Positions 5,626-63,470 of a stretch of 63,470 nucleotides of DNA are shown piece by piece. This DNA comes from Candidatus Geothermincola primus (GTDB lineage: Bacteria; Actinomycetota; Geothermincolia; Geothermincolales; Geothermincolaceae): NCBI GenBank assembly GCA_015711725.1, contig JACVIX010000001.1, positions 1 through 63,470 of the forward strand, written 5' to 3'. Each line of letters starts with the position of its first letter. Position 1 is the first letter of the stretch. Below the pieces are notes generated by a model. It searched no databases and had not been told where the DNA came from. It saw only the letters and a program-made list of their open reading frames with translations. The position numbers were made by a program, and so were the translations under genes.

Positions 5626-6073
5626 CGTAAGCAGTCAACCTCCTCACATGAAAATATGGAAATGGTTATTTCTATCATCTAAACACCGAATGCAGAAAAT
5701 AGTTACATTTTGTAAATTGTATGAGTGAATTTTAATGTATATAGTTAATTACGTAATCTGGTGTTCCGGAGAAATTATTTAATAAGATTCAATAAACATT
5801 ATATATCTATAAGAGGTAGTGTTCAAATATTTTGTTCCATCGGAATCTTTAATCGTTTATCGAGGGCTTAAGTTAACTTTGAAAAACAAGAACAGGGATA
5901 TATCGTCTAAGCCTAGGGAAATTTACCATAAATTCGTGGGGAAATACGTCTTATCCTTGCCATGACATGTAGGTAGAATTGGAATAAAGACAAAAGGGTC
6001 TTAATCCGAGGATGTCTATACCGATGATTCATGAAGAAGTGAAAAAGTATGGCGTTTGAATGGAGTAAGCTAT

Positions 6074-9292: not shown

Positions 9293-9298
9293 GATGGT

Positions 9299-20045: not shown

Positions 20046-20707
20046 ACGAGATTGCCCTTAAAATGTTGGGGATATCCGGAAGTCCCATCGAAGGTGGGAA
20101 TGTTGAGACCCTTCTAAAGGACGCTATTTCTAGCCAGCAAGATGATTCCGGATTGAGTTGGGAGATAGTAAGGCTTTCAGAATTGAATATAGGCGATTGC
20201 CGTCAGTGTAACTGGTGTTTAAAGAAGCAAACCCCTGATAGGTACTGTGGCCTGGAGGATGATATGCAGAACCTCTATCCAAAAATAGACGAGGCCGACA
20301 TCATCATCCTGGCTACCCCTGTATATTTCGGACGCCTTTCGGGATACTTGGCGACTATGATCGACCGTTTACGCGTATACATACATGGCAATATTTCCAG
20401 AGGAATGCTGCGCAACAAGGTAGGTGCTTCCATAGTGGTGGCTTGGTTTCGCTTGGGTGGATGGGAGACGGCGATAGCCACGCTTAACCAGTTTTTCTTT
20501 TCCGTGAACATGGTAATTGCTGCGCCTGATTTGGGGCTGTCAGGCGCCGCCGCTTTCTCTTCCCTGGAGGGCGCAGGGAAGAGGTTGGGTAATGACCGAC
20601 TGCTAGTCTTGAAGGACGATTTAGGCGTGGCCTCGGCACGCTCTGCGGTGGCCCGGGCGATGGAGTTGAGCCGTTTGCTGAAGGTTGGCCAGGCGCAAAA
20701 GGGATAG
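20042..20707 (+). CDS. iron-sulfur flavoprotein-like NADPH-dependent FMN reductase family protein
   Basis: 'GISGSPIEGGN' and 'ATPVYFGRLSG' fit the flavodoxin-like fold. A compact Cys cluster 'CRQCNWCLKKQTPDRYC' is present. The start overlaps the kinase stop as ATGA. Confidence 0.7.
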   Translation: MNEIALKMLGISGSPIEGGNVETLLKDAISSQQDDSGLSWEIVRLSELNIGDCRQCNWCLKKQTPDRYCGLEDDMQNLYPKIDEADIIILATPVYFGRLSGYLATMIDRLRVYIHGNISRGMLRNKVGASIVVAWFRLGGWETAIATLNQFFFSVNMVIAAPDLGLSGAAAFSSLEGAGKRLGNDRLLVLKDDLGVASARSAVARAMELSRLLKVGQAQKG

Positions 20708-25689: not shown

Positions 25690-28071
25690 ATGAAGATACA
25701 CTTATGTAGGTCGATAGCTTTAATAATCTCGTCCCTCTTGCTAATGAGCCTTTTGATGGTTGATTCCTCACATGTCCAAGCTGCCTTTACGGACATTTAT
25801 ATAGAGCCAGCTGCTATACAGCAGGCTATAGAATACGCGTGTTCCCGCGGTTATTTGGAGGGGAATCCCGATGGGACGTTCAAGCCCAGAGAATGGATTT
25901 CTAGAATCGATGCGGCTCGAGCGTTGGTAATGGTTTTTGGCCACGGGCAGGAGCAACCGGACCCCAACATTCATTTTCCGGACCTGCCTGACGAAGATGC
26001 CAGATTCCGCTGGGCTAACTTGGCGGTCAAGCACGCTTTAATGGACAGGCTTCCGGATGGAAGGTTTCTTCCCGAAGTGACGATATCGCTGGAGAGGCTA
26101 GCTATAGGCATTACCCATGGTTTAGGGCTGGATAGCGTGGCCACCAATATCCAGCGCATTGTTCCTCAAGCTCCATATTATGGAGGTTTCATGGTAGTGT
26201 TCATGGGACTACGTTTGAAGTATTACGAAAGGAACTACGCTTTTTCGGTGAAAATCTGGCCAACCGGAGGTTACCCACGGGGCAACATGGCTTATACTCT
26301 ACAAAGGATCGATTACCTTGAATCGTGGCGGAGAAATTACCTAATCTCCACTTTCACAGAAGAGAGATGTCAACCGCCTCAAGCCAATGCTGGTCAACAG
26401 ACCGCGCTCAACTACGGATTTGAACGGTTGGGTTCCCCCTATTTGTATGGAGGAGAATCGGAGGCGGAAGGTGGTTTTGACTGCTCGGGTTTCGTCTACA
26501 ATACCTTGAGCATGCGCATGGGTTATCCCATGAAAAGGGTGGCGGATGACCAAGCCCGGGACGAAAATTATCTTTCTATCAACCGAGCTTACCTCAAACC
26601 AGGTGACGCTATTTTTTTCTATGATGAGGCGGGAGGAGGCTCCACGGGACATGTTGGCCATGCGGGTATGTATGTGGGTAACGGAATTTTCATCCATTCC
26701 GCGGGTTCCAATGGAGGCGTGAGCCTGGATTGCCTGGACACCTCCAGTTATTACAGCACTCATCTGGCTTGGGGAAGGAGGGTGGTTGGCGGTCCCTATC
26801 GCGATCGATTCGAGGAATATCTCCTTTTATTCAACCCGGATGCCTCGTCCGCCAGTGTGCAGGTCCAATATATAAGCAAAAAAGAACCCCCATTCACCAG
26901 GACTTACACCGTCGCTCCTCGCAGCAGGTATACAATACGCGTTGACGACCAGGTTGATTACGACGAAGTATCTCTTAAGGTTACCGCGGACCGGGACATA
27001 GTGGCGGAGCGCGCCATGTACTATAGTTATATGGGAAAGATGCCTGGAGGCGAAGCTTCGCCAGGGGTCTCCATTCCCAGCCTTTCCTGGTATTTCTCCG
27101 AGGGGTACACTGTAGGGAGCTTCGATACCTGGCTTTTACTCTTTAATCCCTCGGATTCCGCGGCCCAAGTAAGGTGCCGTTATCTTCTAGAATCAAGTAA
27201 GGTAATCGAGCAGAATTACATGGTGTCTCCTGGAAGTAGAACCACCATCTCAGTGGACGGAGTGCCGGGAATGGAGGGGACGGGCGTTGCATTGCAGGTC
27301 GAGTCCACCAACGGGGTGGGAATCGTTGCCGAGCGAGTGATGTACTTCGACTATATGGGAAATAAAGGGGGTAGCGGAGGGATAGGGGTGAATGCACCGG
27401 CGGGGAAATGGTATCTGGCTGAGGGCTATACCGGCAGTGGGTTCGACACCTATCTCACATTGGCCAATCCATCTGAGGATCTCGCCAGAGTGCAGGCGGA
27501 TTTCCTGTTGGAAGGCCGCGATAGGGTCACCGAATATTTTGATGTCGCGCCCCATTCCAGGTTGACCGTGAAGGTAAATGAGATAGTGCCAAAAGCAAAT
27601 GTGGCTGTGGAAGTGGGGTCGCTCAATGGGGTAGGAATTGTGGCGGAGAGGGTCATGTACTTCAACTATGGCGGAAAGAGAGGGGGCCATGCCAGTGCCG
27701 GCGCCTCCACGCTATCCAGTGACTGGTTTTTCGCAGAGGGATACACCGGGGGCAGTTTCGATAATTATTTGGTTCTAGCCAATCCTTGGGAGGAACAGAC
27801 CGGGGTGGTCTGCAGGTTTTTCCGGGATGATGGGGTAATGGTGGAAAGAAATTATAGGGTGGCGCCGCAAAGTCGCTTCACCATAAAAGTGGATGACATC
27901 GGCGGCTTGGAGTCCGCCGCCTACGCTATCCGTGTGTCTTCCGACCGGCCGGTTATAGCGGAACGCGCCTCCTATTTCTCTTATCGAGGATGGGATGGGG
28001 GAAGCGATGCTAAGGGCGTGGCCGCTCCTCGACGAGAATGGTATTTCGCGGAGGGATACACAGGGGGCTAG
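25690..28071 (+). CDS. SLH-anchored NlpC/P60 cell-wall hydrolase followed by 'WYFAEG...VAER' repeats
   Basis: Signal peptide, then two SLH-like segments ('GYLEGNPDGTFKP', 'LPDGRFLP'). NlpC/P60 motifs are 'GGFDCSGFVYN' and 'GHAGMYVGNGIFIHS'. Four repeat copies start at about 26787. Confidence 0.85.
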   Translation: MKIHLCRSIALIISSLLLMSLLMVDSSHVQAAFTDIYIEPAAIQQAIEYACSRGYLEGNPDGTFKPREWISRIDAARALVMVFGHGQEQPDPNIHFPDLPDEDARFRWANLAVKHALMDRLPDGRFLPEVTISLERLAIGITHGLGLDSVATNIQRIVPQAPYYGGFMVVFMGLRLKYYERNYAFSVKIWPTGGYPRGNMAYTLQRIDYLESWRRNYLISTFTEERCQPPQANAGQQTALNYGFERLGSPYLYGGESEAEGGFDCSGFVYNTLSMRMGYPMKRVADDQARDENYLSINRAYLKPGDAIFFYDEAGGGSTGHVGHAGMYVGNGIFIHSAGSNGGVSLDCLDTSSYYSTHLAWGRRVVGGPYRDRFEEYLLLFNPDASSASVQVQYISKKEPPFTRTYTVAPRSRYTIRVDDQVDYDEVSLKVTADRDIVAERAMYYSYMGKMPGGEASPGVSIPSLSWYFSEGYTVGSFDTWLLLFNPSDSAAQVRCRYLLESSKVIEQNYMVSPGSRTTISVDGVPGMEGTGVALQVESTNGVGIVAERVMYFDYMGNKGGSGGIGVNAPAGKWYLAEGYTGSGFDTYLTLANPSEDLARVQADFLLEGRDRVTEYFDVAPHSRLTVKVNEIVPKANVAVEVGSLNGVGIVAERVMYFNYGGKRGGHASAGASTLSSDWFFAEGYTGGSFDNYLVLANPWEEQTGVVCRFFRDDGVMVERNYRVAPQSRFTIKVDDIGGLESAAYAIRVSSDRPVIAERASYFSYRGWDGGSDAKGVAAPRREWYFAEGYTGG

Positions 28072-28572: not shown

Positions 28573-28617
28573 CTTTTTAAGTTCTTGGTTTTCCAATGGT
28601 CTTGAGGAGGATTGAAT

Positions 28618-29121
28618 ATGCATGAGATGACCGAGAAATTCCTGAGGGAGGCTTTCGCAGGAGAGAGCATGGCCCACATGCGTTACGCCATCTTCGCGGA
28701 CCAGGCGGAGAAGGATGGATTACCGGAGCTTGCGCGGCTTTTCCGGGCCATTTCCTATGCGGAGAGGGTGCATGCGGAGAACCACTATCGCGCTCTGGGA
28801 GAAGTGGGCAGGAATGAGAGTAATATCCAGATCTGCATCGATGGGGAAAACTATGAGATCAATGAGATGTACCCCGTCTTTAACGCGACGGCAAAGTTAC
28901 AGGAAGAGAGCGAGGCGGAGAAAACCACTTACTATGCTCTAGAGGCGGAAAAGATACACGCGGAGATGTATGCGAAAGCGAAGAAGGTGGTGGGGGCCGG
29001 TGAAGACTTAGATATCGGCACCATCCAGATTTGTAGCGTGTGCGGTCATACCCGGGAAGGGGAAGCGCCAGAAAAATGTCCCATCTGCGGGGCGAGTCGG
29101 GATAAGTTCCGCGCGTTTTAA
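28618..29121 (+). CDS. rbr: rubrerythrin
   Basis: Ferritin-like diiron motifs 'EAFAGESMAHMRY' and 'AERVHAENH', plus a C-terminal rubredoxin-like 'CSVCGH...CPICG'. ATG at 28618 follows GGAGGA with 6-nt spacing. Confidence 0.9.
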   Translation: MHEMTEKFLREAFAGESMAHMRYAIFADQAEKDGLPELARLFRAISYAERVHAENHYRALGEVGRNESNIQICIDGENYEINEMYPVFNATAKLQEESEAEKTTYYALEAEKIHAEMYAKAKKVVGAGEDLDIGTIQICSVCGHTREGEAPEKCPICGASRDKFRAF

Positions 29122-32398: not shown

Positions 32399-35300
32399 TC
32401 AAGCCCTCATCAGCTCTCCCATCATAGGCCCCAGCAGAGGGGGCATGACTCTCTCCATCACCCCGGGCAGCATGCGGGGCATCAGTTCGCGCATAGATGG
32501 GGACATCTCTGGCATCTTCTGTTCTAGGATGGGAAGCATGCGGGGTAGCATCAGTTTGAGCATGAGAGGCAACAGGCGCGAAGCCATAGAGGGTCCCACT
32601 TTGGTCATCGCCCAAACGATAGTCCTCTTGACGGGCGAAGGTAGAGCGCGCATTCCTTTTATGATGGCTGAGCTGGGCCCAGGAAGAGATAGCAGGAACT
32701 CTTCCATGAAGTCTGCCATACCCTGAGGAGTCATTAGTCTAATCATCTTGTCGAAAACGGCCCAGTTCCTGGCCACCTCGGCAGTGGGGTCCCCTAAAGG
32801 ATAACCCAAAGCCTCTGAAACCACGGAGGCAAAATCGCGAACTGGCATTTCGCTTCCTGCGGCTTGGCTCCATACTCTCAATTGAAATTCGCAGCAAGGG
32901 CAGGTTGTGACTATGGCTTGAGCTTCGGTCTGTCGAGCTTCCTCAAGCCTTTTGGAGGCGATAGCCTCAGAAGTGGGCTTGGTTTCGCCGATAAGTGTGA
33001 GAACGCTACCACAACAGAGGGCGTCTTCACGGTTATGTTCCATCTCCACTAACGTGATCCCCGGAATGGCTTTCAGCACTTCCCTGGGCGCTTCGTAGAT
33101 ACCTCCGTGGCGTCCAATGTGGCAAGGATCGTGCCATGTGATCTTCATGGGAATATTATTTACAAATTGTAATTTATTTTCCGCAAGAAGTTCTGCGGCA
33201 ACCTCCGAAATATGTTTTACCTCCACCTCCCATTCGATTCCAAGCTTCTCGGCCCATTGTTTATAGTGGTGGGATAAAGTGACCCAGCAACCCGGGCATG
33301 AGGCTATCAAAGTCTTGATCCCCCTGCCCTTTATTTCCTCTATATTCTTGCGCACAGCTTTTTCGAACAGGTCCCATTTTCCGCTCATAAGAAAAGGAAT
33401 GCCGCAACAAGTCTCCTTCTCCCCTAGATAAACGAATTCCAAACCTCCCTCCTTAAGTATGCGTACAGAGCCTTGGGCGATATCCTTCTCCACATAGGAA
33501 GCAGTGCAACCTGCCCAGTAACCCAAAGATCCTTCCTTGAGAACATCTATATCCTCGGGGAGCCAGGAGTCTCGATTCTCGGAAAAACTTGCCCAGATGT
33601 TGCTCTCCATATCGTAGGAAGCGCCCATCATCTCGAAAGGAGGAAATGTCTTAAATCTGCCGGAAGCGATTAGTTCGCCCCGCATGGATTCCCATAGGGA
33701 TTCAATGGGCAAATCGGTCTGACATACGTTGTCACATTTTTTACACGTTGTACATAAAAGAAAGGTTCTTGCCATCTTTTCGTTTAAGGGAAGCCTGCCC
33801 TGGCTATATCTCTTGAGGTAATACCATTTGCCGCGAGGGGAAGCGCTTTCCCAACCCCTGCCAGAGTAGAGAGTACATTCTTGGACGCAGTATCCACATT
33901 GAGCGCAGGTGTAAGCGGCGGTTTCCAACTCTTGAGGCAATTTTTTCCTCAAAGAGGGGATATTCTTGGGAAGAAGCCAGCCCATTCTCCAACCTAGCGG
34001 GGCCAGAGGTGTCGCAAAGGACAGGAAATAGTCTAAAAGGCGGACCTTAGCCGGTCTGTGCTCGTCAACTAGTAATTTGCCTGGATTCATAATTCCCGAA
34101 GGATCATGGTCTATTCGATAGCGGCGCAGAAATTCGCTTTTTGTTTTGCCCCACCGTTCCTCAAAGCTAGGCGCAAAGTAAAGACCGATCCCGTAAGGCT
34201 TTCCCCCTCGCTTTCGCACCAGGCTTAGAAAATGCAAGGATTTGGCGAATTCAAGGGTGAACGCAGGAGACCTGGTGTCCGAAGGGATAAAACCTAGAAG
34301 AATCGCCCATCCGTCGGAGGTAAGCGTAGCCTCGATGCTCATATCGGGAATGGACTTCTCCGTGGCGGCGAAAACGGTTGAAAGATACTCCCAAGGTATC
34401 ATGGCTTCGGCGGGGATAAGGGAGGGGCCCAGCTTGCGAAGGCGCATGGGATTAAACCTCTCTTCCCATTCGTGGAGAGCCTGTTTCTGAGGAAGTTGTT
34501 TCCCCCCATGGCGTGAAGCGATTCTTACGAGATGCCTCTCCGTCTCTGGTGAGGGATTTTCCAACACCACAAGTGCTAAATAGGTAACGGGAAGGGGGTC
34601 TTCGGCATCAAGCTGGTTTTTAATTTTAGCTAATTGGGGGTTGAGAATTTGTAGGTGGTAGATGTCAAGGTCAGTGCCCAGTTCTCGCATAAAGGACTGG
34701 ATTCCCAGATAGCCCTTGAATGAGAAGAGTAAGGGGATCTCCTCGCCCGCTTTACGAACCTTAAGCCTTACTGCGGTGATGATCCCGGTGATGCCCTCCG
34801 CACCGTAGTATTTCCAAAGGTCACTCCCTCCAATTTCTTGTAGATTTCCCTCGGGAGAAACTACTTCCAGGCTTTCCAGGTTGCTTTCCAGGGAACCGTA
34901 ACTATAACTCCCAATGCCATAGCCACCCTCAGCCACCCAGCCCCCCACTGTTGAGGAAGGAGCACTGGAGGGGTAGACGCGCAGGGCAAAGCCCTCTTTT
35001 CCAAGGGCTGTTTCTAGATGCTTCCAGATTACCCCTGCATCCACCAGTGCGGTTTCACTTTGGGGATCGATTTCCCTAATTGTGTTCAGCGAGGTGAGGT
35101 CGATTACCATGCCCCCGCTGGAGGGCAACGCTCCACCATAGCCGCTGGTAGCGGAGCCTCTAGGAACAATAGGAATTCCTCGGCTGCGAGCTAGCTTTAC
35201 CAGGTGAATTATTTCTTGGACGCCCCTGACCTTTACCACCACTTCCGCCTGGGGTCGTAACAGTTTTTCTATGATGCTTGGAAATTCCCCCATATCATGG

Positions 35301-35446
35301 GAATAAAGGTCCAGCTCAATATCATCCCAGGTCACTCGGTCGCCAAGATCTTGTTTGAGAGATACCTTGAATTGTTTGGTAACTTTTCCAGCCAATATCT
35401 CCACCTCCAAAAACTTCGCGCTAGCGAGCCTTCGCCTTTCCATCAT
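32399..35446 (-). CDS. fused FAD-linked oxidase (GlcD-like) + 2x[4Fe-4S] + 2xCCG (GlcF/HdrD-like) oxidoreductase with a Met-rich C-terminal extension
   Basis: 'PRGSATSGYGGALP' marks the FAD_binding_4 domain. 'CAQCGYCVQEC' and 'CTTCKKCDNVC' are the cluster motifs. 'CCGIPF' and 'CCGSVL' are the CCG motifs. An alternative TTG start at 35395 follows GGAGGTG. Confidence 0.85.
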   Translation of the reverse strand: MMERRRLASAKFLEVEILAGKVTKQFKVSLKQDLGDRVTWDDIELDLYSHDMGEFPSIIEKLLRPQAEVVVKVRGVQEIIHLVKLARSRGIPIVPRGSATSGYGGALPSSGGMVIDLTSLNTIREIDPQSETALVDAGVIWKHLETALGKEGFALRVYPSSAPSSTVGGWVAEGGYGIGSYSYGSLESNLESLEVVSPEGNLQEIGGSDLWKYYGAEGITGIITAVRLKVRKAGEEIPLLFSFKGYLGIQSFMRELGTDLDIYHLQILNPQLAKIKNQLDAEDPLPVTYLALVVLENPSPETERHLVRIASRHGGKQLPQKQALHEWEERFNPMRLRKLGPSLIPAEAMIPWEYLSTVFAATEKSIPDMSIEATLTSDGWAILLGFIPSDTRSPAFTLEFAKSLHFLSLVRKRGGKPYGIGLYFAPSFEERWGKTKSEFLRRYRIDHDPSGIMNPGKLLVDEHRPAKVRLLDYFLSFATPLAPLGWRMGWLLPKNIPSLRKKLPQELETAAYTCAQCGYCVQECTLYSGRGWESASPRGKWYYLKRYSQGRLPLNEKMARTFLLCTTCKKCDNVCQTDLPIESLWESMRGELIASGRFKTFPPFEMMGASYDMESNIWASFSENRDSWLPEDIDVLKEGSLGYWAGCTASYVEKDIAQGSVRILKEGGLEFVYLGEKETCCGIPFLMSGKWDLFEKAVRKNIEEIKGRGIKTLIASCPGCWVTLSHHYKQWAEKLGIEWEVEVKHISEVAAELLAENKLQFVNNIPMKITWHDPCHIGRHGGIYEAPREVLKAIPGITLVEMEHNREDALCCGSVLTLIGETKPTSEAIASKRLEEARQTEAQAIVTTCPCCEFQLRVWSQAAGSEMPVRDFASVVSEALGYPLGDPTAEVARNWAVFDKMIRLMTPQGMADFMEEFLLSLPGPSSAIIKGMRALPSPVKRTIVWAMTKVGPSMASRLLPLMLKLMLPRMLPILEQKMPEMSPSMRELMPRMLPGVMERVMPPLLGPMMGELMRA

Positions 35447-36117: not shown

Positions 36118-37896
36118 ATGCGGCTGGAAGTGGTCTTGATGAGAAAGATTTTGTATTTATGGATGATAAGTTTGGCATTCCTTCTTGTTTTCTCTCTCGC
36201 CCCGTATGGTTTGGCGGACGCTTATGAAAAACCGCAGATTGACATTATAGAGCCGGCGAGGGCGCCAATAGGAAGCGAGATCACTATCAATGGCGCCCAC
36301 TTTGGCGATATGCGAGAGGGATCTCGCGTAGTGTTTGGCTCTGTAGAAGCTACACAGTATATCCGCTGGTCGGATTCTCAAATAAAAGTGATTGTGCCTT
36401 ATGGGTCATATCCGGATAGCCAGTTGCAAGTTAAGGTCATAACCCCTGGGGGAAGTTCTTATGGGGCCAGATTCGAGCTGGAGCCCCGCGCTATGGTCCT
36501 GGCCGAAGGTTTCACAGGTAAAGGTTTCCAAGAATATATAATACTGGGCAATCCTCAAGCTTTCGAGGTTAAGGTTAAATTACTATATATCTTCGCGGAC
36601 GGCACGTATATGGAAAGGGGCATGATAGTTCCCCCCCAATCCAGGGTAACCGTCGACGTGAACAGGGATGTGGGCGAGGAAGAGGAAGTATCTGCATTGA
36701 TTTTCTCAGATATCTATATTGTGGTGGAACGGCCTATCTACTTCGATTACCGGGGATGGACAGGAGGACACAATATTGTAGCAGGACGCAAAGCCAGCAA
36801 AACTTGGTATTTCGCGGAGGGATCTACTGAGCCAGGATTCGATGAATACTTGGCGGTTCTCAACCCCACGGAGAAAGAGGCCAATTTGGTCTTCCGTTTT
36901 CAGATAGAGGACGCGGGAGAAATTTTCCGTTACGGGAGCGTGCCCGCCTATTCACGGAAGACATTCAAATTAAACGATCTGCTGGGTTCGGGATGCCGAG
37001 CTTCATTGGCCTTAAAATCGGACCAATTCGTTGTGGCAGAGAGAAGCATGTACTTCGGCCACGAAGACAGTCGGAGCGGTGGCCATTGCGAAATGGGTTT
37101 ACCGGGATTTCCCAGTTCAGGACCTTTTTCCTACTACTTCGCTGAGGGCAGCACTTTCGGCGGCTTCGATGAATATCTGATATTACAAAACCCCGATTCA
37201 GCTATTCCAGTGGTGGTGGATGTGACCTATAGGTTCCGGGCGGGCCAGGGGGACCCAATTCGTAAGCAGTATCGGTTGGAGCCAGGGCAGAGACGCACTA
37301 TCTTCTTGCCCGATGATGTGGGGAGAGGCAAGGATGTCTCTGTTGCGCTGCAATCGGATTCACCATTCGTCGCGGAACGCTCTATCTTCTATCGATATGA
37401 TTTTTCCGATATTAGTGTATATGGTGGAGATTGCATCGTCGGTGCCCGGAAAACTTCCCTCCAATGGTACTTCTCCGAGGGTTTTACCGGGCCGGATTTC
37501 CACGAATGGCTGTCACTTTTCAATCCCGGAGAAGAGGATTCCCTAGTGGAAGTCACCTATTTCACTCCATCGGGAGTTTTACATCCCGCGAGAATCACTG
37601 TTCCCGCAGGAAGTAGGGAGACTTTTATGGTGAATGACCATGCGGGCAGAAACATCTTGCTCTCCTGCCAGATTAGAGTCATTTCTGGGCCGGGTATCGT
37701 GGCGGAAAGACCCATGTATTTCCGATTATCCCAAACTGAGGATGGAGATACGGCGGTTGAAGGGGGACATACTTCGCTGGGCGATGTCCCCTATGCCGGC
37801 GATGCCCTTGAAGATTACACTTCCAACTGTTGCAGTAATCTAATGGAAGCCCTAAGTCCCTTCTTTCAGGAAAAGGCTCGGAGGTTATGGAAGTAA
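36118..37896 (+). CDS. secreted IPT/TIG-domain protein followed by four 'YFAEG...VAER' repeats
   Basis: Signal peptide 'ILYLWMISLAFLLVFSLAP'. The IPT/TIG-like segment is 'PQIDIIEPARAPIGSEITINGAHFG...VKVITPGG'. Repeats span about 36481-37770. An alternative start is at 36139. Confidence 0.8.
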   Translation: MRLEVVLMRKILYLWMISLAFLLVFSLAPYGLADAYEKPQIDIIEPARAPIGSEITINGAHFGDMREGSRVVFGSVEATQYIRWSDSQIKVIVPYGSYPDSQLQVKVITPGGSSYGARFELEPRAMVLAEGFTGKGFQEYIILGNPQAFEVKVKLLYIFADGTYMERGMIVPPQSRVTVDVNRDVGEEEEVSALIFSDIYIVVERPIYFDYRGWTGGHNIVAGRKASKTWYFAEGSTEPGFDEYLAVLNPTEKEANLVFRFQIEDAGEIFRYGSVPAYSRKTFKLNDLLGSGCRASLALKSDQFVVAERSMYFGHEDSRSGGHCEMGLPGFPSSGPFSYYFAEGSTFGGFDEYLILQNPDSAIPVVVDVTYRFRAGQGDPIRKQYRLEPGQRRTIFLPDDVGRGKDVSVALQSDSPFVAERSIFYRYDFSDISVYGGDCIVGARKTSLQWYFSEGFTGPDFHEWLSLFNPGEEDSLVEVTYFTPSGVLHPARITVPAGSRETFMVNDHAGRNILLSCQIRVISGPGIVAERPMYFRLSQTEDGDTAVEGGHTSLGDVPYAGDALEDYTSNCCSNLMEALSPFFQEKARRLWK

Positions 37897-53763: not shown

Positions 53764-54663
53764 CTAACCATCCAGCTGAGCTTCGAGGAAACGGGGAAGC
53801 CCCGCATAATCGAATAAGGTCTCAACATTTACATATCCTTCGCGGATTGCCTGGAATGTGATTCTTTCCAACTGATGCGCTCCGGCCTCCATGAATAACC
53901 ATCCCCTGGGTGATAGCCAAAATTTTGCGTTTTGTAAAATTTTCAAATGGAAGGAGATACCATTCTCTTTCGCCAGCAGCGCGATACGAGGCTCATGATT
54001 TTTTACTTCAGGGGGAAGTAGTTGAAATTCTTCTTCAGATACGTAAGGAGGATTGCTTAATATAAAGTCTATGCGACCCTTCAACTCCTCGGGCAATGAT
54101 TCAAAGAGGTCGCTGTGATAGAATCTCACTCGGTCCTGGAGGCCTAACCTCACCGCGTTCTTTCTGGCTACTTCCAGCGCCTGGGTAGAGATGTCCGAGG
54201 CATGCACCTGCGCTGAGGGGTTTTCATAGGCTATGGATAAGGCGATACAACCGGATCCCGTGCCCAGATCCAGGACCACTGCCTCCCTCCTTCCCAGGCT
54301 CATCTTCTCAAGTCCCCTCTCAACCAATAACTCCGTTTCGGGACGGGGTATCATCACCTGGGGATTTACCTCGAGCTCTAGATAACGGAAGCCTCGGAAG
54401 CCGGTGATGTATTGAAGCGGCTCGTGATGGAGGCGCCTTTGCAGAAGAGATTTGAAATCGTTTATTTCTTTTGTCGAGAGGGGCTTCTCGAAGTTGACAT
54501 AGAGGTTGATCCTGCTCAAACCGGTTGTCAGTGAGAGCAAAGTTTCCGCGTTGAGCCTGGGACTGATGATCTGCTCCCCTCTCAGCTTTTCTGTGGCCCA
54601 GTTGATTATGTCGATGATTCGATTGCCTGACGGCGAAGATATCTTTTTCATCATGGTCTTCAT
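53764..54663 (-). CDS. prmC: release factor glutamine N5-methyltransferase
   Basis: 'VLDLGTGSGCIA' is the SAM motif. 'ILSNPPY' is the NPPY motif. The true start may be the ATG at 54651. Confidence 0.9.
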   Translation of the reverse strand: MKTMMKKISSPSGNRIIDIINWATEKLRGEQIISPRLNAETLLSLTTGLSRINLYVNFEKPLSTKEINDFKSLLQRRLHHEPLQYITGFRGFRYLELEVNPQVMIPRPETELLVERGLEKMSLGRREAVVLDLGTGSGCIALSIAYENPSAQVHASDISTQALEVARKNAVRLGLQDRVRFYHSDLFESLPEELKGRIDFILSNPPYVSEEEFQLLPPEVKNHEPRIALLAKENGISFHLKILQNAKFWLSPRGWLFMEAGAHQLERITFQAIREGYVNVETLFDYAGLPRFLEAQLDG

Positions 54664-54961: not shown

Positions 54962-56041
54962 TCAAGAGATAGTGAGCTCTTTTAACTTTTCAGTCCTTTC
55001 CTGGGTGGCCAACGCGTCGATGATTTCGTCAAGGTCACCTTGGAGAATATCTTCCAGACGGTAGAGGGTAAGGCCGATGCGGTGATCGGTCAGCCTTCCT
55101 TGGGGAAAATTATAGGTTCTGATGCGCTCAGAGCGATCGCCCGTCCCCACCTGAGAGCGCCTCTCGGCTGCTTGTTCTTGTTGTTGACGGTCTTGCTGCA
55201 TTTTAAGTAAGCGAGCGCGGAGTATTCTTAAAGCTTTCTCTCGATTTTGAAGTTGCGATTTTTCGTCCTGGCAGGTCACCACCAAATTGGTGGGGATATG
55301 GGTAATCCTCACTGCGGAGTCGGTGGTATTTACTGATTGTCCACCGGGACCGGTAGAACGGAAGACATCTATGCGTAGGTCGTTGGGGTTGATCTCTACG
55401 TCTATCTCCTCCGCTTCGGGAAGCACCGCCACCGTTGCGGTGGAAGTATGGATTCGCCCTCCCGATTCGGTCACGGGGATTCTTTGAACCCGGTGAACTC
55501 CGGATTCATATTTCATCTTGCTATAAGCCCCCTTGCCTTTGATGCTGAAAACAACTTCCTTGAACCCACCCAGATCGGAAGGGCTGGAGGAAAGTGGTTC
55601 CACTTTCCAGCCTTGAGAGTCGGCGTAGCGGGTATACATGCGATAAAGGTCTCCGGCGAAGAGACTGGCTTCCTCTCCCCCCGCGCCAGCCCGTATTTCC
55701 ATGATTACGTTTTTTTCATCGCGCGGATCCTTAGGAAGAAGAAGATAGCGCAACTCATCCTCTAGGCTACCCAACTTCTGCTGAGCCTGGGCGAGCTCCT
55801 CCTCCAGGAAGTTTTCCATCTCTTCCTCATGGTCTTCTTTCTGCAGTTGGCGAATCTCCTTTATTTCCTTCTCAAGGGCGCGGTATTCCTTAAATTTGCC
55901 TACTATCACACCTAACTCAGCGTGGGACCTGACCAATTCGCGGTAACGCTTCAGATCCTTTAACAACTCTGGCTGGGAGAGCTCACGATTGAGGCTCTCA
56001 TATACCCTCTCCAGTTCTTCAAGTTTAGCCCTTATATCCAT
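54962..56041 (-). CDS. prfA: peptide chain release factor 1
   Basis: The '[10 protein letters not shown]' GGQ motif is present. The 'PVTES' region fits the RF1 PxT tripeptide context. 359 aa. Confidence 0.95.
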
Positions 56042-56049
56042 CTCTTCCT

Positions 56050-57033
56050 CTACGATTCATTCGACCGTTTATATATTCCCCTCTCCGTATCGTGAATTAT
56101 TCCCTCCACCTTTATTAGAGAACTCAACGCGAACAAAGCCACTTCGGCCTGATCTTCTTGTGGCCTGCGAGTGGTCAATCTCTGCAGAACCAGCCCAGGC
56201 CAAGCGATTATTCTAACCGCTCGGGAATTCCGATGACGGTCCGCTAGTTTCATTATCTCATAGGAAAAACCCGCTATTAAAGGAAGGAGAATTATGCGCT
56301 CGGAGATTCTAAGCCACAGTGCGGGCCGGCCCAGAAAAGAGTAGACAAGGATTGTGATTAGGAAGACAAGAAGCAAAAGAGAGGTGCCGCAGCGCAGGTG
56401 GTCTGTCCCTTTTCTTAGAGCAAGTTGGGGTTCGAGGGGAAGTCCTTCCTCCAGAAGATGGATGGCCTGATGTTCGGCTCCATGATACTGGTAAAGTCGG
56501 CGGATGTCTTTGAGCAATGAGGTGATGAGCAGATAGAGGATAAATATGACAATACGTAAAAATCCCTCTAACAGGTTAAGATATATTACGTTAGCGTTAT
56601 TCCCCAAAACACGAGGGGCGAGGTAAGTTGGCAGTGCGATAAAAAGGGCGATAAAGATAATCAGAGCTATGAACAGGGATATGATAAATTCCACCCCCAT
56701 CCCTGAGCTTCCCTTACTTTCTCGCCATCCTCCTCCCTTTTTTCCGTAATCCGGGCTCGCCTCGCCCAGAGCAATTTGGGTGGATTGCCCCAGAGCTTTG
56801 AAGCCTAGGATCAATGTCTCCACGAGAAGTGATATCCCCCTTAAGAAAGGGTAATTCCACACCGGATGTCTAGTGGTGAATGAATCGATGGGCGAGGAAT
56901 GGCAATAGACGGAACCATCAGGGCGGCGCACAGCCATCGACCAGTGCTTTCGCGAGCGCATCATCACGCCTTCAATAACAGCTTGGCCACCGATGGAGAG
57001 GTCCTCCAACTCTTTCGCTTTGAGGTAAAGCAT
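56050..57033 (-). CDS. DUF1385 (YqhQ-like) membrane protein
   Basis: '[13 protein letters not shown]' and 'YHGAEHQAI' are typical. The position between rpmE and prfA is conserved in Clostridia-like genomes. Confidence 0.8.
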
Positions 57034-57567: not shown

Positions 57568-58833
57568 TCATGATATAGGAGATTTGGATATCTCCTCAAG
57601 GAACTCGGCGTTGCTCCGGGTAGCCCTTATCTTATCGATAAGAAGTTCGATGGCCGCATTGGGATCTAGCGCATGTAATACCCTGCGTAATTTCCAAACG
57701 ATTTGCGCTTCCTCGGGTGGCATAATCAGCTCCTCTTTGCGCGTTCCCGACTTCTCTATGTCGATAGCAGGGAATATGCGCTTATCCGCAAGTTTGCGAT
57801 CGAGATGGAGCTCCATATTGCCTGTTCCTTTGAATTCCTCGAAAATGACTTCATCCATACGCGAACCGGTATCAACCAGGGCGGTAGCTATAATGGTAAC
57901 GCTTCCGCCTTCTTCGATATTTCTCGCCGTCCCGAAAAAACGCTTGGGCGGAAACAGGGCGGTGGAGTCAACGCCTCCGGATAGAATCCTCCCGCTGGTG
58001 GGGGTGGTCAAATTATAAGCCCTAGCCAGACGGGTGATACTGTCTAGTAGAATTACCACGTCCTTCTTGTGCTCCACCAACCTCTTAGTCCGTTCCAGCA
58101 CCAGCTCTGCCACCTGGATATGATTTTCCGAGGGCTGGTCGAAGGTGGAGCTTACCACCTCGCCCTTGACTGATCTTTCCATATCGGTTACTTCCTCCGG
58201 GCGCTCGTCAACCAGGAGCACAATCAGTTTTACCTCGGGATTATTGGTGGTGATGCTGTTAGCGAACTGCTTTAAGATGGTGGTCTTTCCAGCTCGTGGC
58301 GGGGAGACGATAAGTCCCCTCTGTCCCTTCCCGATGGGCGCGATGAGGTCAATAATACGGGAGGAGGTCTCGCCCACGTACGTCTCTAGGCGCAGACGCT
58401 CCACGGGATAGAGTGGCGTCAACTGCTCGAACTGTCTGCGCGTCCTGCATACCTCGGGATCATCGCCATTCACGCTCTCGATGCGCAGGAGCGCATTATA
58501 TTTCTCGCTATCTTTGGGAGCTCGCACCTGACCGGTGATCTCATCCCCACGTTTCAAGTGGAAACGTCTTATCTGGGATTGAGAAACATAGATGTCGTTC
58601 TCACTGGGAAGGTATCCATTGGTGCGTAGGAAACCGTAACCTTCCGAAAGGATATCCAATATCCCCGTTCTTATGGAGAGGCCATCTTCCTCAGCCTGGC
58701 GCTTGAGGATCAACTCGATCAGTTCGGCTTTGCGTAGACCGCTGATTCCAGTCAGCCCTTTTTCCTTGGCTAGCTCCTGAAGATCAGCCAGAAGCATGGA
58801 TTCCAACCCATTCCGATTCAAAGATTCGTTCAA
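57568..58833 (-). CDS. rho: transcription termination factor Rho
   Basis: The N-terminal '[14 protein letters not shown]' and the RNA-binding 'GYGFLR' are present. The Walker A is 'PPRAGKTT'. 421 aa. Confidence 0.95.
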
Positions 58834-58899: not shown

Positions 58900-59571
58900 T
58901 CATTTTGTCTCCTGTTTGGTTGAAGGAAGATCCTTAATCTTTTCGTAGTCCTTGAGAAAACGCTCTATCCCTATATCGGTCAGCGGGTGCTTCACCATTT
59001 GCACCATCACCTCGTAGGGGATAGTGGCGATATGCGCGCCCGCCCTTGCTGCCTGCACCACGTGCATAGGATGCCTAAGACTAGCGGCGATTAACTGGGT
59101 AGATATATTATAAGTGTCGAAGATGTCCACGATCTCCTCCACCACAGACATTCCCCAATTACCTATGTCGTCCAATCTACCAACGAAAGGGCTGACAAAG
59201 GTGGCTCCCGCCGCTGCCGCCAGTAAAGCCTGGTTGGAGGAGAAGACCAAGGTCATATTGGTTTTGATGCCTTCTTTTGATAGAATGCTAACCGCTCGTA
59301 ATCCCTGAGGGGTCATGGGAATCTTTATATTGATATTCTCGGCTATAGAAGCTAACTCTCTAGCCTCCCGGAGCATACCCTCGGCGTCCAGGCTTAGGGC
59401 CTCCGCGCTGATGGGGCCCTTAACAATCTCCGCGATCTCCATGAGGCAGTCTCTCATGGACTTTCCCTCCCGCGCCACCAAAGAGGGATTGGTGGTTACT
59501 CCCGAAAGAATACCCCATTGATTTATCTCTCTAATGTGCTCTATATTTGCCGTGTCTAGAAAGAGCTTCAT
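58900..59571 (-). CDS. tal: transaldolase / fructose-6-phosphate aldolase (short TalC/Fsa type)
   Basis: '[16 protein letters not shown]...GVTTNPSL' and 'IKIPMT' are typical. ATG at 59571, preceded by GGAGGTG, is preferred over the track start at 59667. Confidence 0.9.
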
Positions 59572-59602: not shown

Positions 59603-60577
59603 TCAGTCCACTTTGAATACTCCGGGAAGATCGTATAGCGCCGAACGCTCTTTCGCTTCCAGCTCATACACTTCGTTAATAATATATTGCAATACCTCAG
59701 AGACGGTTACGTCTAAATACACGCTGTCGATGGTCACGATACCTCTTTTATTAGCCTCTTCTACAATAAATTCCTGTATCTTACGTATGTTTTCGAAGTG
59801 TCTAATATAACGAAGGAAGGGCCGAGTGCCTTGGGTTTCAGATTCCCGTATGTAAAAGTGACCGCGGTGCAGAGACTCATCCATCACGGTTATCACTAGT
59901 TGAACGATAAAAGCGTTGGGAAATTCGTTCAGATTGATGAACCCGGGAACGATATGAGCGCCCTCTATTATCACATGAGTGCCCTCAGTTATAGCCCGTT
60001 TGATCAGAGCCTTGACTCCCACCAGCACGGAGATGGTCTGTTCGCGAAAGCCGGCGATAGTGGGGTCAATGGAATCCGGAAGGGGCTGGCGCAGGGCTTT
60101 TGCGGCCTCAAATGACGATGTGTGGATGGAGGGCATTAGCACGTCGGAGAAGAACGCCCTCATTACTTCCCTCACCGCATCGGTGGAGACTATACGCACA
60201 ATTCCAAGTCTATTGGCCAACATAGTGGCGATGGTTGATTTACCTACCCCGGTCGTTCCGCCGATGAGTATGATAAGAGGCTTATCCAGACGGGAAAAGG
60301 AATGATATTTCTGATAATTGGAGGCGTAGCGTTCCCCCATTTTTCCAAGGATATTTTCGTAGATGAGCTCACGCAATTGCGAGTCCTGAATATGTTCGAT
60401 TCCCTGATCCAGGAGGAATTTCTCTATATCTTCAGCGATGCGATAAGCCCGGGTAGGTGGCACCCCGGATGACATTATAGCGCTGGCAGTGAGCCCTTTG
60501 GAATACGGCACTTTGTGTTTCTGTTCGTCTATTACTATGATTCTTTTTGGTTTTTTATTTTTCTGGTTTCCCATCAC
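59603..60577 (-). CDS. 2-phosphoglycerate kinase-like protein (ATP-cone-like N-terminus + P-loop kinase; COG2074-type)
   Basis: The P-loop is '[24 protein letters not shown]'. Length and N-terminal region match archaeal 2PGK as I recall it. It is paired with the CPGS-like gene. Confidence 0.7.
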
Positions 60578-60606
60578 TTTGTCCTTTAGGGAAAAATCGA
60601 TTACCC

Positions 60607-61935
60607 TTATTTGACGCGTTCCAATAAGCGCTCTATGAAGTCCTCCATGCTATCATCGTCTACGCATATAGGCCTGTTATGCATGAATACCACCTCTTTG
60701 CCCTCTTTGACTGCGAATCTTACCGCGACTTCCACCGCAGCCGCCTTGAGCTCGGTAAGAAGCACATCGAAATCAGGCGCTTTCCTCAGATCCTCCTCCA
60801 GCGGCTTTCTTCTGGACAGGTGGTTGCTCCATCCCCGCACGACGCAACCTGTCTTTCTTTGCAGGTAGTCCGCCAAAATATCACCCATCTGCGCCGGAGC
60901 CGTAAATGTGAGGAATACCTTCCTGTTCTCTATGGATTTCAGGGGAAGCGGCCTGAAGATAGTCTTAACCAGCAACAAATCGCTGTTGATTGACCGGATT
61001 CCTTCCACCAATTGCGCTATTTTCTGTTTGTCGGCGCAGGGTTCCTCACACATTGTAATGATTACTCCGTCAGAAATCAAGAGTCTATATGTTCCAAGAT
61101 ATCCCAAGGAGTCGTCCAGTGGTTGAGCGGCGCTTACCACGCAGATATTGATATCAGCTTTTACTGGAGGCAGAGCCGCGCCGCTCCCTTCCAGAATGAT
61201 TAATTTTTCCTCCAACCCATTGGCCATTACGGCTCCCTCCAGGAAATTAGTGACAAAGGGTTCTCCCGCCATCCCCCCTCCACAACGGCGACATCCTATG
61301 GTGGTGATTCCCGCCACCAAGGCATCTTCGAAGTGGTCAGAAGCGGCATGGCTCCCTTTATTCAGTTCTTCCAGAAGGTAATGGCTGTCGATCCCTCCTG
61401 CAGGCTCCCTAATCAGCTGAGGTTCCTGTGGGCCACCTCTTCCCATGGCTACCACCACAGGAGGAGTGCCTTTGTTCTTGAGATATTGGGCGAGGTGGGC
61501 GGAGACGGCGGTCTTGCCACAGCGTTTCCCGGTGCCAAAGACTGCGATGGAAGGCTTGTCCAGAACTGTTTCCATCAAGGGCGGATGAAATTCAAAGTCG
61601 GCGCCTCGGTAACGAACACCCGCTTTGAGAGCTCGGGAGATGAGCTGGAAACGCAGACTGTTGGATAACACGGGTTCATCGCTTAAATCAACTACCATCT
61701 CGGGTTGAAAGCTGCGCAGCGCTGAAGAGAAATCGCGCAATAGATTAGAGGGGACGATCAACGGCTTGGAAAGGGAGTAGGCATCGTCGGGTTCGGATAT
61801 TTTCTCGGTTCCCCCCAGGAAGAAAAGGGCTATAGGATCCCATCCCCGGGTCACTGATAGCTTTTCCACGGCTTCAAGAACCACGGTTGGATGGTGCTCT
61901 CCATCGATGAGAAATATAGTCTTTATGGGTGTCAC
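60607..61935 (-). CDS. cyclic 2,3-diphosphoglycerate synthetase-like protein (COG2403-type P-loop)
   Basis: N-terminal 'IFLIDGEHHPTV' and P-loop 'VFGTGKRCGKTAVS'. The ~440-aa length matches the CPGS family as recalled. The start codon is uncertain (GTG abuts the SD). Confidence 0.65.
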   Translation of the reverse strand: MTPIKTIFLIDGEHHPTVVLEAVEKLSVTRGWDPIALFFLGGTEKISEPDDAYSLSKPLIVPSNLLRDFSSALRSFQPEMVVDLSDEPVLSNSLRFQLISRALKAGVRYRGADFEFHPPLMETVLDKPSIAVFGTGKRCGKTAVSAHLAQYLKNKGTPPVVVAMGRGGPQEPQLIREPAGGIDSHYLLEELNKGSHAASDHFEDALVAGITTIGCRRCGGGMAGEPFVTNFLEGAVMANGLEEKLIILEGSGAALPPVKADINICVVSAAQPLDDSLGYLGTYRLLISDGVIITMCEEPCADKQKIAQLVEGIRSINSDLLLVKTIFRPLPLKSIENRKVFLTFTAPAQMGDILADYLQRKTGCVVRGWSNHLSRRKPLEEDLRKAPDFDVLLTELKAAAVEVAVRFAVKEGKEVVFMHNRPICVDDDSMEDFIERLLERVK

Positions 61936-62115
61936 CTCCCCTTGTTTCCTATATTGATGCGTGCTTTTTGATTTCTCATGTGAACCAGACTGTATATTTC
62001 TGGTTCGAATAAAGTGAGGAATAGGTCGTCTTCAACTATATGAATATAAACCATGTGTCATCCGGAGCGAGCGGCAAAGGCAAGGTTCCTATTATGTCTA
62101 CCGAACCAGTTTAGC

Positions 62116-62940
62116 TTATTTAAGCTCTAACCCGATAATTTCCTTTACCACTCCGGAGAGTTCTCGCTGAACCTCGTTCGTCCCGGCAGTGAATTGAGCG
62201 ATGATGTCTCTTCCGCCAAAAGGGTATTTACGGTAAACCGTGGTCATTTCCTCGGTTATTTCAATTACATTATAACATGGTCTGGTATGCCCACGTAAGC
62301 GGAGGGAGGAAGCGGTTCCGGCATTCACCACATACATCCCCTCCAATTCCCATACGTAGGGAACGTGTTTGTGACCGGTGAGAACTAGGTGCACGCCGGC
62401 GTAGATCAGCAGCTCTGAGAGATCCCCGGCATCGTAGATGATATTACGCTCCCGTCCCGTTCCCGGTACTGGAAGCAGGTGGTGGTGGAGAGCGAAGATC
62501 TTAAAGTCACCCTCTCTTTCAAAAGCTTTGAGTATCCAGCCGTATCTCTCCCTGCCTATCCTGCCATCATTGAGGTCGGGTTCGCTGGAGTCCGCTCCCA
62601 CGATGGTCAGTCCGCAGTAATTCAATACCGAGAAACGTTCCCCAAAGAGTTCTCCGAAGTGAAGGTACCCCACGTTGCGGGAGTCGTGGTTCCCGGGTAC
62701 GATAATCACCCGCTCGCATTTGATGTTGCTGAGATAAGCCTTGGCGGTGTTGTACTCCTGACGGAAGCCTTCGTTGGTCAGGTCACCTGTGACCACCACG
62801 ATATCGGGATCTAATTCGTTCACTTCGTTTATGGTCCTGTTCATCAGGTTGGTGACGAAATGAACCGAGCCTACGTGAAAGTCGGAGATATGGGCGATAC
62901 ATATGGGGGACTTTTCCAGCGTGACCTTTCCGCTTTTCAA
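62116..62940 (-). CDS. calcineurin-like metallophosphoesterase
   Basis: Motifs 'HISDFHVG', 'GDLTNEG', 'GNHD' and 'GHKH'. Confidence 0.8.
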   Translation of the reverse strand: MKSGKVTLEKSPICIAHISDFHVGSVHFVTNLMNRTINEVNELDPDIVVVTGDLTNEGFRQEYNTAKAYLSNIKCERVIIVPGNHDSRNVGYLHFGELFGERFSVLNYCGLTIVGADSSEPDLNDGRIGRERYGWILKAFEREGDFKIFALHHHLLPVPGTGRERNIIYDAGDLSELLIYAGVHLVLTGHKHVPYVWELEGMYVVNAGTASSLRLRGHTRPCYNVIEITEEMTTVYRKYPFGGRDIIAQFTAGTNEVQRELSGVVKEIIGLELK

Positions 62941-63357
62941 AACGATTTCCTTTTCATCGATTTCTACGACCCAAGATATTTACTTCTTATAACTATTATA
63001 ATACATCCCTTTTCTCAATATCACTTCTTTAGGCAATCGTTTCCTTTACTGCCTGCGCTCCTTTTCCATCATGCCGTGGAGTCGGGGTCTACCCTACATT
63101 CTTGTTTCGAGAAGTGTCCACGCCTTCACGAAACCCGCGGCTTAATCTATTGGCGAACAGTATTCCTTAACTCTTTCTCTGAAAACAACGTTTAAACGGG
63201 TACATCTTCTGTCGATTTATTTAGAGAATGTAATAGCTCATTTAGCGAGTTATGGGTATTATGCTGTTACTTGCTCTGGCCCGACGATATGGGATCGCGG
63301 CGAAGTTATACTTATTAGAGTAGAGTGACAAGAGAACAGAAATGGGCGAGCTCATAA

Positions 63358-63470
63358 ATGACGAAGATGAAGCTTAAAGGGATATTTGCCTCGCCGGGAT
63401 GGGGAAACTTCATCCGAAAGTACCTCATCTACCTAATCATGCTGGCCTTCTTCCTTCTCTACGCGCTGGC
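63358..63470 (+). CDS. partial CDS (N-terminus only), possibly an ABC-transporter permease
   Basis: The ATG opens 'MTKMKLKGIFASPGWGNFIRKYLIYLIMLAFFLLYAL', which runs off the window. A hydrophobic helix follows a basic stretch. Only 37 codons are visible. Confidence 0.3.
   Translation, partial: MTKMKLKGIFASPGWGNFIRKYLIYLIMLAFFLLYAL

Follow-up and report, generated by a model that had tools for sequence, protein, structure and literature searches.

A predicted cyclic 2,3-diphosphoglycerate gene module in a conserved housekeeping gene array of Candidatus Geothermincola primus

Results

We analysed a 63,470-nucleotide (nt) stretch of DNA from Candidatus Geothermincola primus (Actinomycetota; contig JACVIX010000001.1, positions 1 to 63,470), here called the window; all coordinates are positions in this 63,470-nt window, and genes on its minus strand are marked (-). 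Our subject is a pair of adjacent genes, of which one, at 60607..61935 (-), encodes a predicted orthologue, up to 442 amino acids (aa) long, of cyclic 2,3-diphosphoglycerate (cDPG) synthetase (cDPGS or CpgS), and the other, at 59603..60577 (-), encodes a protein of 323-324 aa belonging to the 2-phosphoglycerate kinase (2PGK) family. A preliminary description of this DNA had reported two open reading frames (ORFs) of 442 and 324 aa with a gap of 29 nt between them, embedded on the same strand in a housekeeping gene array of a bacterial host, and we found all of this as claimed, with both ORFs on the minus strand and the gap at 60578..60606; the motifs FLIDGEHHP and GTGKRCGKT of the first protein and the P-loop motif in the kinase domain of the second could likewise be read in the translations. 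On the basis of homology, residue conservation, synteny and purifying selection, we consider it probable that the pair encodes the predicted 2PGK and cDPG synthetase of a vertically inherited actinobacterial cDPG module, and we infer both enzyme activities, the accumulation of cDPG in vivo, its physiological role and the function of a linked metallophosphoesterase (MPE).

The putative synthetase matched the cDPGS of Methanothermus fervidus (PDB 8ork/8oru) in a phmmer search with an E-value of 1.1e-114 across residues 5-433 of 442, and the two proteins are 46% identical over 426 aligned residues. In the M. fervidus enzyme, K145 and R146 bind 2,3-diphosphoglycerate (2,3-DPG), as does E45 (with K46) from the other protomer, T150 and D208 are Mg2+ ligands, K149 and K406 are charge shields, and E305, T353 and E404 contact ADP (PMC10690619). 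At each of the 11 positions named for ligand binding or catalysis the window protein has the same residue (E44, K45, K137, R138, K141, T142, D200, E297, T345, E395 and K397 in window numbering), and its Walker A segment G134-T-G-K137-R138-C-G-K141-T142 aligns with G142..T150 of M. fervidus. The named residues, including the P-loop, were invariant in an alignment of 34 homologues. Further, a profile of mostly bacterial homologues retrieved only cDPGS entries from the PDB (8ork with 604 bits), and CpgS_N (PF27272) is the precomputed domain of the window protein (P0001) and of all 120 homologues listed. Overall, the synthetase identity proposed in the preliminary description is well supported, and we predict the 442-aa protein to be a cDPG synthetase orthologue. 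A third solved 'cDPG synthetase', PDB 9sxb (436 aa), was dropped as a possible bacterial cDPGS because its sequence looks archaeal, with a Thermococcales-like composition. This protein is without the MCEEP motif ('LAD--M' is aligned there), the site of the ADP-contacting E305 of M. fervidus; the motif is kept in the window protein (residues 295-303).

We considered whether the P-loop protein could instead be an enzyme of the arginine synthetase (ArcE) type. Proteins of that type used to carry the annotation 'putative GTPase'. ArcE, too, has a P-loop, shows 'low' similarity to cDPGS homologues and occurs in many bacteria, Actinomycetota and Bacillota among them, and it represents a demonstrated alternative function within the wider superfamily (PMC11032458); it is thus a real candidate for the other demonstrated function that, according to the preliminary description, this clade might turn out to have. 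However, the extent of identity to a characterised cDPGS (46% over 426 residues) and the retention of every 2,3-DPG-binding residue, including the trans residues E45/K46, argue against it, and the authors of the ArcE study took cDPGS as an outgroup, meaning that the two are separate families (PMC11032458). ArcE genes lie near arcB and arcC, whereas here the neighbour is of the 2PGK family, and neither an ornithine transcarbamoylase (arcB) nor a carbamate kinase (arcC) was found among the ∼40 annotated ORFs of the window. The evidence, in which the window protein is set apart from ArcE by the published description of the latter and by the identity to cDPGS, places the protein with cDPGS, and we regard an ArcE-type activity as extremely improbable.

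The adjacent kinase matched the NCBIfam model NF003259 ('2-phosphoglycerate kinase') end to end (E-value 5.8e-91, 305 bits, positions 4-300 of 306), and paralogous models scored much lower (PRK12338, 151 bits; mevalonate-3-phosphate 5-kinase, 89 bits). Chance can be discounted for this match, as it can for that of the synthetase. Models of 2PGK were also the best match in 29 of 29 family members tested, among them kinases adjacent to cDPGS in Thermoplasmata, haloarchaea and Calditrichota. The wide margin by which 2PGK models score best agrees with the original assignment, and the view that the 324-aa protein is a 2PGK, as predicted from these matches, is reasonably supported. The N-terminal region that had been called ATP-cone-like, at about residues 13-94, fared less uniformly: an ATP-cone was detected in 25 of the 29 family members (best E-value 2.3e-7), but the window protein itself, with 19.6 bits, falls below the Pfam cut-off of 25.8.

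To place the pair in its surroundings, we list its minus-strand neighbours in the order of transcription. Upstream of the synthetase gene lies the MPE gene (62116..62940 (-), 274 aa, CpdA/Icc/GpdQ-like; Pfam Metallophos, E-value 1.2e-17), and downstream of the kinase gene lies tal (58900..59571 (-)), encoding a short-type transaldolase/fructose-6-phosphate aldolase (FSA) of 223 aa (TIGR00875, 326 bits, cut-off 246). It is followed by rho (57568..58833 (-); TIGR00767, 684 bits), the first gene of a conserved housekeeping array that continues with rpmE for ribosomal protein L31 (57054..57284 (-); Pfam Ribosomal_L31 at the same position in the related loci L001 and L082), a gene for a DUF1385 membrane protein (56050..57033 (-); PF07136, E-value 2.6e-70), prfA for peptide chain release factor 1 (54962..56041 (-); read from the translation, with PCRF and RF-1 domains at the orthologous position of L001) and prmC for the release-factor methyltransferase (53764..54663 (-); read from the translation, with PrmC_N and MTS domains at the orthologous position of L001 and L082). 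The preliminary description had therefore named the MPE, tal, rho, rpmE, prfA and prmC genes and their shared strand correctly but had overlooked the DUF1385 gene. Similarly, the short gaps it described apply to the genes from cDPGS through 2PGK and tal to rho (29-66 nt) but not to the 180 nt between MPE and cDPGS or the 283 nt between rho and rpmE. Reading of the DNA put the true start of tal at ATG 59571, with AGGAGG in front, so an apparent overlap with the kinase gene disappears; for the kinase, ATG 60574 is the most likely start, giving 323 aa and a 32-nt gap to cDPGS.

We next asked how the synthetase family is distributed. At least 8000 database proteins matched at E<1e-10, and an alignment-based scan found the family in at least 567 GTDB species representatives; the locus counts below refer to the best 80 loci, picked by similarity to the query. 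Of these 80, 37 are bacterial and 43 archaeal. The bacterial loci belong to Actinomycetota (including Geothermincolia, Aquicultor, Anoxymicrobiaceae and Acidimicrobiia), Bacillota, Anaerolineae, Calditrichota and Neomarinimicrobiota, and the archaeal ones mostly to the mesophile-associated Methanobrevibacter and Methanobacterium, with some Thermoplasmata, haloarchaea and Methanopyri. The rarity implied by calling the pair archaeal-style thus did not hold up, and many proteins of metagenome-assembled genomes (MAGs) already carry the label '2,3-diphosphoglycerate synthetase' or '2-phosphoglycerate kinase' from NCBI or JGI. In a neighbour-joining tree of cDPGS (100 bootstraps, midpoint-rooted, built from query-similar loci, so that its deep branching order is not to be read), the window protein paired with that of L001 (bootstrap 100) and was joined by Ca. 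Geothermincola secundus and two Danish MAGs (98), and this group was nested in a larger Actinomycetota subclade (100). The Methanobacteriales with M. fervidus (100), together with the Methanopyri (97), formed a separate clade. Consequently, the window cDPGS sits in a supported Actinomycetota clade apart from the methanogens (98-100 bootstrap), and the archaeal affinity first attributed to the pair was not borne out.

Searches of the related loci with the window proteins (tblastn) revealed the block MPE-cDPGS-2PGK-tal-rho-(rpmE)-DUF1385-prfA in Actinomycetota loci, where it is kept while cDPGS identity drops from 86% to 45-47%. In line with the proposal to look for the pair in related genomes, MPE, cDPGS, 2PGK, tal and rho occur together, in the same order, in 23 further loci, with DUF1385 and prfA matched in many of them; the position of tal after 2PGK is conserved in the Actinomycetota loci, and three close relatives show this gene order, which recurs across independent assemblies (NCBI, JGI, Logan and ENA). 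Because more than 20 divergent Actinomycetota MAGs share this order, we conclude that the MPE-cDPGS-2PGK-tal segment is an old and vertically inherited feature of that lineage. Among the bacterial loci that could be assessed, 31 of 36 have the kinase gene directly behind cDPGS; among the archaeal loci the figure is 4 of 43, from Thermoplasmata and haloarchaea. An adjacent cDPGS/2PGK pair has been described in Pyrococcus yayanosii (PMC4890121). In comparison with L001, the ratio of nonsynonymous to synonymous substitution rates (dN/dS) was 0.081 for cDPGS, 0.046 for 2PGK, 0.024 for MPE, 0.029 for tal and 0.011 for rho; the module genes, at 0.02-0.08, are under strong purifying selection.

These results bear on the possibility that the locus reflects a recent horizontal acquisition from archaea or a chimera of assembly or binning, as might be suspected of an 'archaeal-style' pair that lies inside a bacterial operon and is linked to a compound reported from archaea only. 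Against this, GC content is even throughout the region (0.49-0.51, compared with 0.43-0.55 over the whole window), the gene order is identical in the independent assemblies from all four sources, the block outlasts the fall in cDPGS identity from 86% to 45-47%, the window protein is nested in the Actinomycetota clade with 98-100% bootstrap, and selection is strongly purifying. A recent transfer or a chimera is therefore scarcely credible.

The start of the synthetase gene deserves comment. The 442-aa reading begins at GTG 61935, the only canonical start codon available in the window, which directly adjoins the Shine-Dalgarno sequence (GGGGAGGTG), and an in-frame ATA follows 8 nt past GGAGG. 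L001 has GCG where the window has GTG 61935, and downstream of the ATA the two sequences differ by synonymous changes at third positions, indicating that this region is translated. In L001, L002, L082 and L033, the stretch that runs from the in-frame stop upstream to the near-invariant motif DGEH contains no ATG, GTG or TTG, and in L003, L010 and L086 a canonical start codon is found only 1-2 codons before DGEH. All seven of these loci have ATA or ATC at -7/-8 codons before DGEH, with a Shine-Dalgarno-like motif 6-9 nt upstream of it. Gene callers shortened these synthetases (to 425 aa in P0002, 423 aa in P0003 and 422 aa for the L086 gene), and sister lineages and methanogens have ATG at about -11. 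The window cDPGS thus probably starts at ATA 61926..61924 rather than at GTG 61935, and initiation at AUA or AUC in several Actinomycetota lineages would be the simplest reading of this pattern. Such a start would mean weak, possibly IF3-sensitive translation of the committed, ATP-consuming step. If anything, the putative non-canonical start argues for throttled translation and against the constitutive expression that the preliminary description had suggested.

The 180-nt spacer between the MPE and cDPGS genes (61936..62115 (-)) ends in a Shine-Dalgarno sequence, aaGGGGAGG, at about 61941..61933, and except for this element it is poorly conserved in L001 and L082. No Rfam match was found in the spacer or anywhere else in the window at gathering thresholds, and an inverted repeat at 62006..61982 was discounted as a feature because neither L001 nor L082 keeps it. 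Promoter-like and terminator-like sites showed no enrichment over shuffled sequence, and we therefore make no claim about operon boundaries. No minus-strand terminator-like site was seen between 53.5 and 63.5 kb. The 530 nt upstream of the MPE gene (62941..63470), with which the window ends, contain stops in all three minus-strand frames, and the best promoter-like match of the region (10/12) lies there, at 63024..62995. The MPE gene may be the head of a transcription unit.

We then turned to the MPE itself. Its translation displays all canonical motifs of the family (DxH, GD, GNHD, H and GHxH), the solved structures closest to it are only distantly related (Rv0805/Icc and GpdQ, E-value about 1e-8), and its own subfamily is tight, with 58-73% identity over the best 120 matches. 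In 23 Actinomycetota loci, cDPGS is preceded by a single-domain MPE. In 4 further loci, from two Thermoplasmata MAGs, one Eubacteriales MAG and one unclassified bacterial MAG, we found a second order of overlapping genes, cDPGS-2PGK-CBS pair-tandem MPE, in which a tandem MPE fusion lies downstream of the CBS-pair protein (L045 8677..10167; L076 8655..10166); each half of the tandem is ∼35% identical to the window MPE (E-values 8e-45 and 6e-35). By eye, the metal-binding motifs of the second half are degenerate. In addition, 3 of 3 sampled MPE homologues on long contigs adjoin CpgS, one of them (L083) by a 4-nt overlap. The presence of two gene orders across domains is moderate evidence of a functional link between MPE and cDPGS-2PGK, and we propose the MPE, from its gene neighbourhood, as a candidate cDPG or 2,3-DPG hydrolase.

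Beyond the MPE gene, the threonine genes of the window's own genome would lie outside the 63,470 nt. Its relatives have hom-thrC upstream of the module, plus either a GHMP-type thrB or a gene for a protein of the iPGM/ApgM family (L002 1132..4152; L083 1..3447; L085 1..1245; L062 4834..5883). The latter protein passes the cut-offs of both NF003242 (cofactor-independent phosphoglycerate mutase) and TIGR02535 (proposed homoserine kinase), and its gene looks like a non-orthologous displacement of thrB. In 17 loci the module is preceded by ApgM, a homologue of archaeal-type phosphoglycerate mutase, and we considered it as a pathway member supplying 2-phosphoglycerate (2-PG). This idea was rejected: because ApgM passes TIGR02535 and takes the place of the GHMP-type thrB after hom-thrC, it was assigned to the threonine operon. 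Directly upstream of the MPE gene, several relatives carry a gene for a ∼740-aa GDE/MGH1-like glycoside hydrolase (L083 3540..5771, L085 3767..6004, L086 2561..5830), whose family includes mannosylglycerate-hydrolase-like enzymes, sometimes with a GT4 glycosyltransferase gene alongside; these neighbours hint at a gene neighbourhood for glycerate-derived compatible solutes.

Elsewhere in the window, a GH65 glycoside phosphorylase of 1078 aa (6056..9292 (+)), with an N-terminal extension of ∼320 aa that has no Pfam match, is followed by a tandem universal-stress protein (9299..10138 (+)), with a GT4 glycosyltransferase close by (4558..5625 (-)); this segment (4558..10138) may serve the metabolism of a disaccharide or glucosyl solute. 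Three large proteins contain a DUF5719 region (2382..4538 (+), 25690..28071 (+) and 36118..37896 (+)), combined with YkuD (an L,D-transpeptidase domain), with SLH plus NlpC/P60, or with a TIG domain, and they appear to be a paralogous cell-envelope set. The window also encodes a flavodoxin, an FMN reductase, a rubrerythrin and a 1015-aa FAD/4Fe-4S/CCG fusion oxidoreductase, with the redox genes at 395..862 (-), 20042..20707 (+), 28612..29121 (+) and 32399..35446 (-); these genes suggest an anaerobic lifestyle of the host.

Discussion

If the assignments above are right, the product of 59603..60577 would act as 2PGK, converting 2-PG and ATP to 2,3-DPG and ADP, and its ATP-cone would probably provide nucleotide-dependent control. 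The product of 60607..61935 would then act as cDPGS, in which attack by the 3-phosphate with release of phosphate would close the cyclic pyrophosphate of cDPG. Two ATP would thus be spent per cDPG, yielding a pool of a trianionic phospho-solute that might protect macromolecules or balance osmotic pressure, store phosphate and energy, or do both, and the adjacent MPE could catalyse the return step by hydrolysing cDPG or 2,3-DPG. The pair belongs to the segment MPE-cDPGS-2PGK-tal, which in many early-branching Actinomycetota is set between the threonine operon on one side and rho-rpmE-prfA-prmC on the other.

Several observations weigh against this interpretation. The literature places cDPG only in methanogens, and the bacterial members are known from sequence alone; as the preliminary description had it, published work confines the compound to thermophilic or hyperthermophilic methanogens (PMC10690619, PMC12136491), and in the literature we found no report of cDPG, or of characterised cDPG genes, in any bacterium. 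Only in the Methanobacteriales has cDPG been measured, and there the two genes lie apart, which makes adjacency a trait of lineages without a measured product. The kinase scores below the equivalog cut-offs of both 2PGK models (305 versus 343 bits for NF003259, and 302 versus 603 bits for NF008994), for which reason close relatives appear at NCBI as 'zeta toxin family' or 'ATP cone domain-containing' proteins; this weakens membership in the strict 2PGK equivalog, though not in the 2PGK family. Thermus and Deinococcus have COG2074 kinases, noted as archaeal-like genes (PMC1274311); neither genus is known to contain cDPG. No solved 2PGK structure was found with which substrate residues could be compared. 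We know of no gene identified so far for a cDPG-hydrolysing activity, and the function proposed for the MPE derives solely from its gene neighbourhood. Moreover, the MPE looks soluble, whereas the cDPG-hydrolysing activity of M. thermautotrophicus is membrane-bound (PMC1224877).

A role of cDPG in the host cannot be tied to heat either, given that the names of relatives suggest ambient groundwater and soil, and this too counts against our interpretation. The IVYWREL fraction of 40 window ORFs is 0.431, which by a composition-based regression corresponds to about 69 °C; in the five proteins compared across relatives, including groundwater Ca. Aquicultor and Danish-soil MAGs, the fraction was 0.43-0.45, and the estimate was dropped since it does not discriminate. 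The compound itself has been reported from a mesophile, judging by the title of a cited reference on cDPG in Methanosarcina frisia.

With these points in mind, we asked whether orthologous enzymes might have another output, either mainly 2,3-DPG or a reversible ATP and phosphate buffer (cDPG + ADP + Pi -> 2,3-DPG + ATP), without cDPG reaching the high concentration of a protectant. Reversibility has been reported for the cDPGS of M. fervidus, and a role of cDPG as a store of phosphate and energy has been put forward (PMC1224877, PMC10690619). Many carrier MAGs bear names that point to groundwater, soil or rumen, so a purely thermoprotective role is unlikely; the linked phosphoesterase suggests turnover rather than a static pool, and a weak AUA/AUC start would limit the level of the synthetase. 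On the other hand, the cyclisation machinery of the synthetase is fully intact, and this alternative differs from a cDPG-producing module only in flux and role, with storage and protection being indistinguishable by sequence. Overall, we think another output rather improbable and retain the vertically inherited cDPG module as the probable explanation.

A more far-reaching version of the cDPG module is conceivable, in which early-branching Actinomycetota and some members of the Bacillota, Chloroflexota, Calditrichota, Thermoplasmata and haloarchaea would operate a complete and regulated cDPG cycle, with the MPE as cDPG hydrolase or 2,3-DPG phosphatase and synthesis throttled by the AUA/AUC start and the ATP-cone. 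We regard this version as possible, if doubtful. Were it true, cDPG would be a widespread bacterial metabolite of phosphate, energy and stress and no methanogen curiosity. Reviews, as well as structural and biotechnology papers of 2023-2025, treat cDPG as exclusive to thermophilic or hyperthermophilic methanogens, and the genomes disagree: several bacterial phyla commonly carry genes for its biosynthesis, which are conserved and subject to selection, and some of the MAG names suggest habitats at ambient temperature. If the bacterial enzymes are active, the ecological meaning of cDPG would have to be sought less in heat protection and more in the storage of phosphate and energy or in general stress, new enzymes that might be easier to express would become available for making a commercially interesting extremolyte, and the linked MPE would be a concrete candidate for a cDPG-degrading enzyme.

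The module is not a new type of system, in that its proteins are clear orthologues of known enzymes already named by automated annotation, and it can be compared with these directly. The cDPGS of M. fervidus was reportedly described by Matussek et al. in 1998, and the window protein resembles it in length class, in the combination of CpgS_N with a P-loop core and in the Walker A motif GTGKRxGKT. It differs in coming from Actinomycetota, in its own supported clade, and in probably having a non-canonical start; furthermore, its gene forms an operon-like unit with the kinase and phosphoesterase genes, whereas cDPGS of the Methanobacteriales lies apart from 2PGK. The 2PGK of M. fervidus is said to go back to Lehmacher and Hensel in 1994. 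With the 2PGK models (NF003259/NF008994) the window kinase shares an end-to-end match, the P-loop motif and an N-terminal ATP-cone region common to the family, and unlike the 2PGK equivalogs it scores 305 bits, under the curated 343. The structure of the M. fervidus synthetase (PDB 8ORK/8ORU) was reported by De Rose et al. in 2023 (PMC10690619). ArcE (TK2200) is a distant relation within the same broad P-loop superfamily, with LpxK-like structural neighbours and a group transfer coupled to ATP/ADP+Pi, and it is unlike the window protein in using arginine and citrulline as substrates and in having arcB and arcC as partners (PMC11032458).

The window MPE shares the calcineurin-like fold motifs of Rv0805, Icc/CpdA and GpdQ, which are closest to it among solved structures, but its similarity to them is low and its subfamily is consistently tied to cDPGS-2PGK. 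The gene order of the region, finally, resembles the classical array thrA-thrC-thrB-rho-rpmE-prfA-hemK, which we take to be contiguous in Mycobacterium tuberculosis (Rv1294-Rv1300). On that premise, MPE-cDPGS-2PGK-tal is a segment present in this group of lineages and absent from classical actinobacteria. Relatives of the window resemble the array in having hom-thrC-(thrB or iPGM-type) upstream and rho-rpmE-prfA-prmC downstream, and the window lineage departs from it by the additional (GDE-like)-MPE-cDPGS-2PGK-tal between the thr genes and rho and by a DUF1385 gene between rpmE and prfA.

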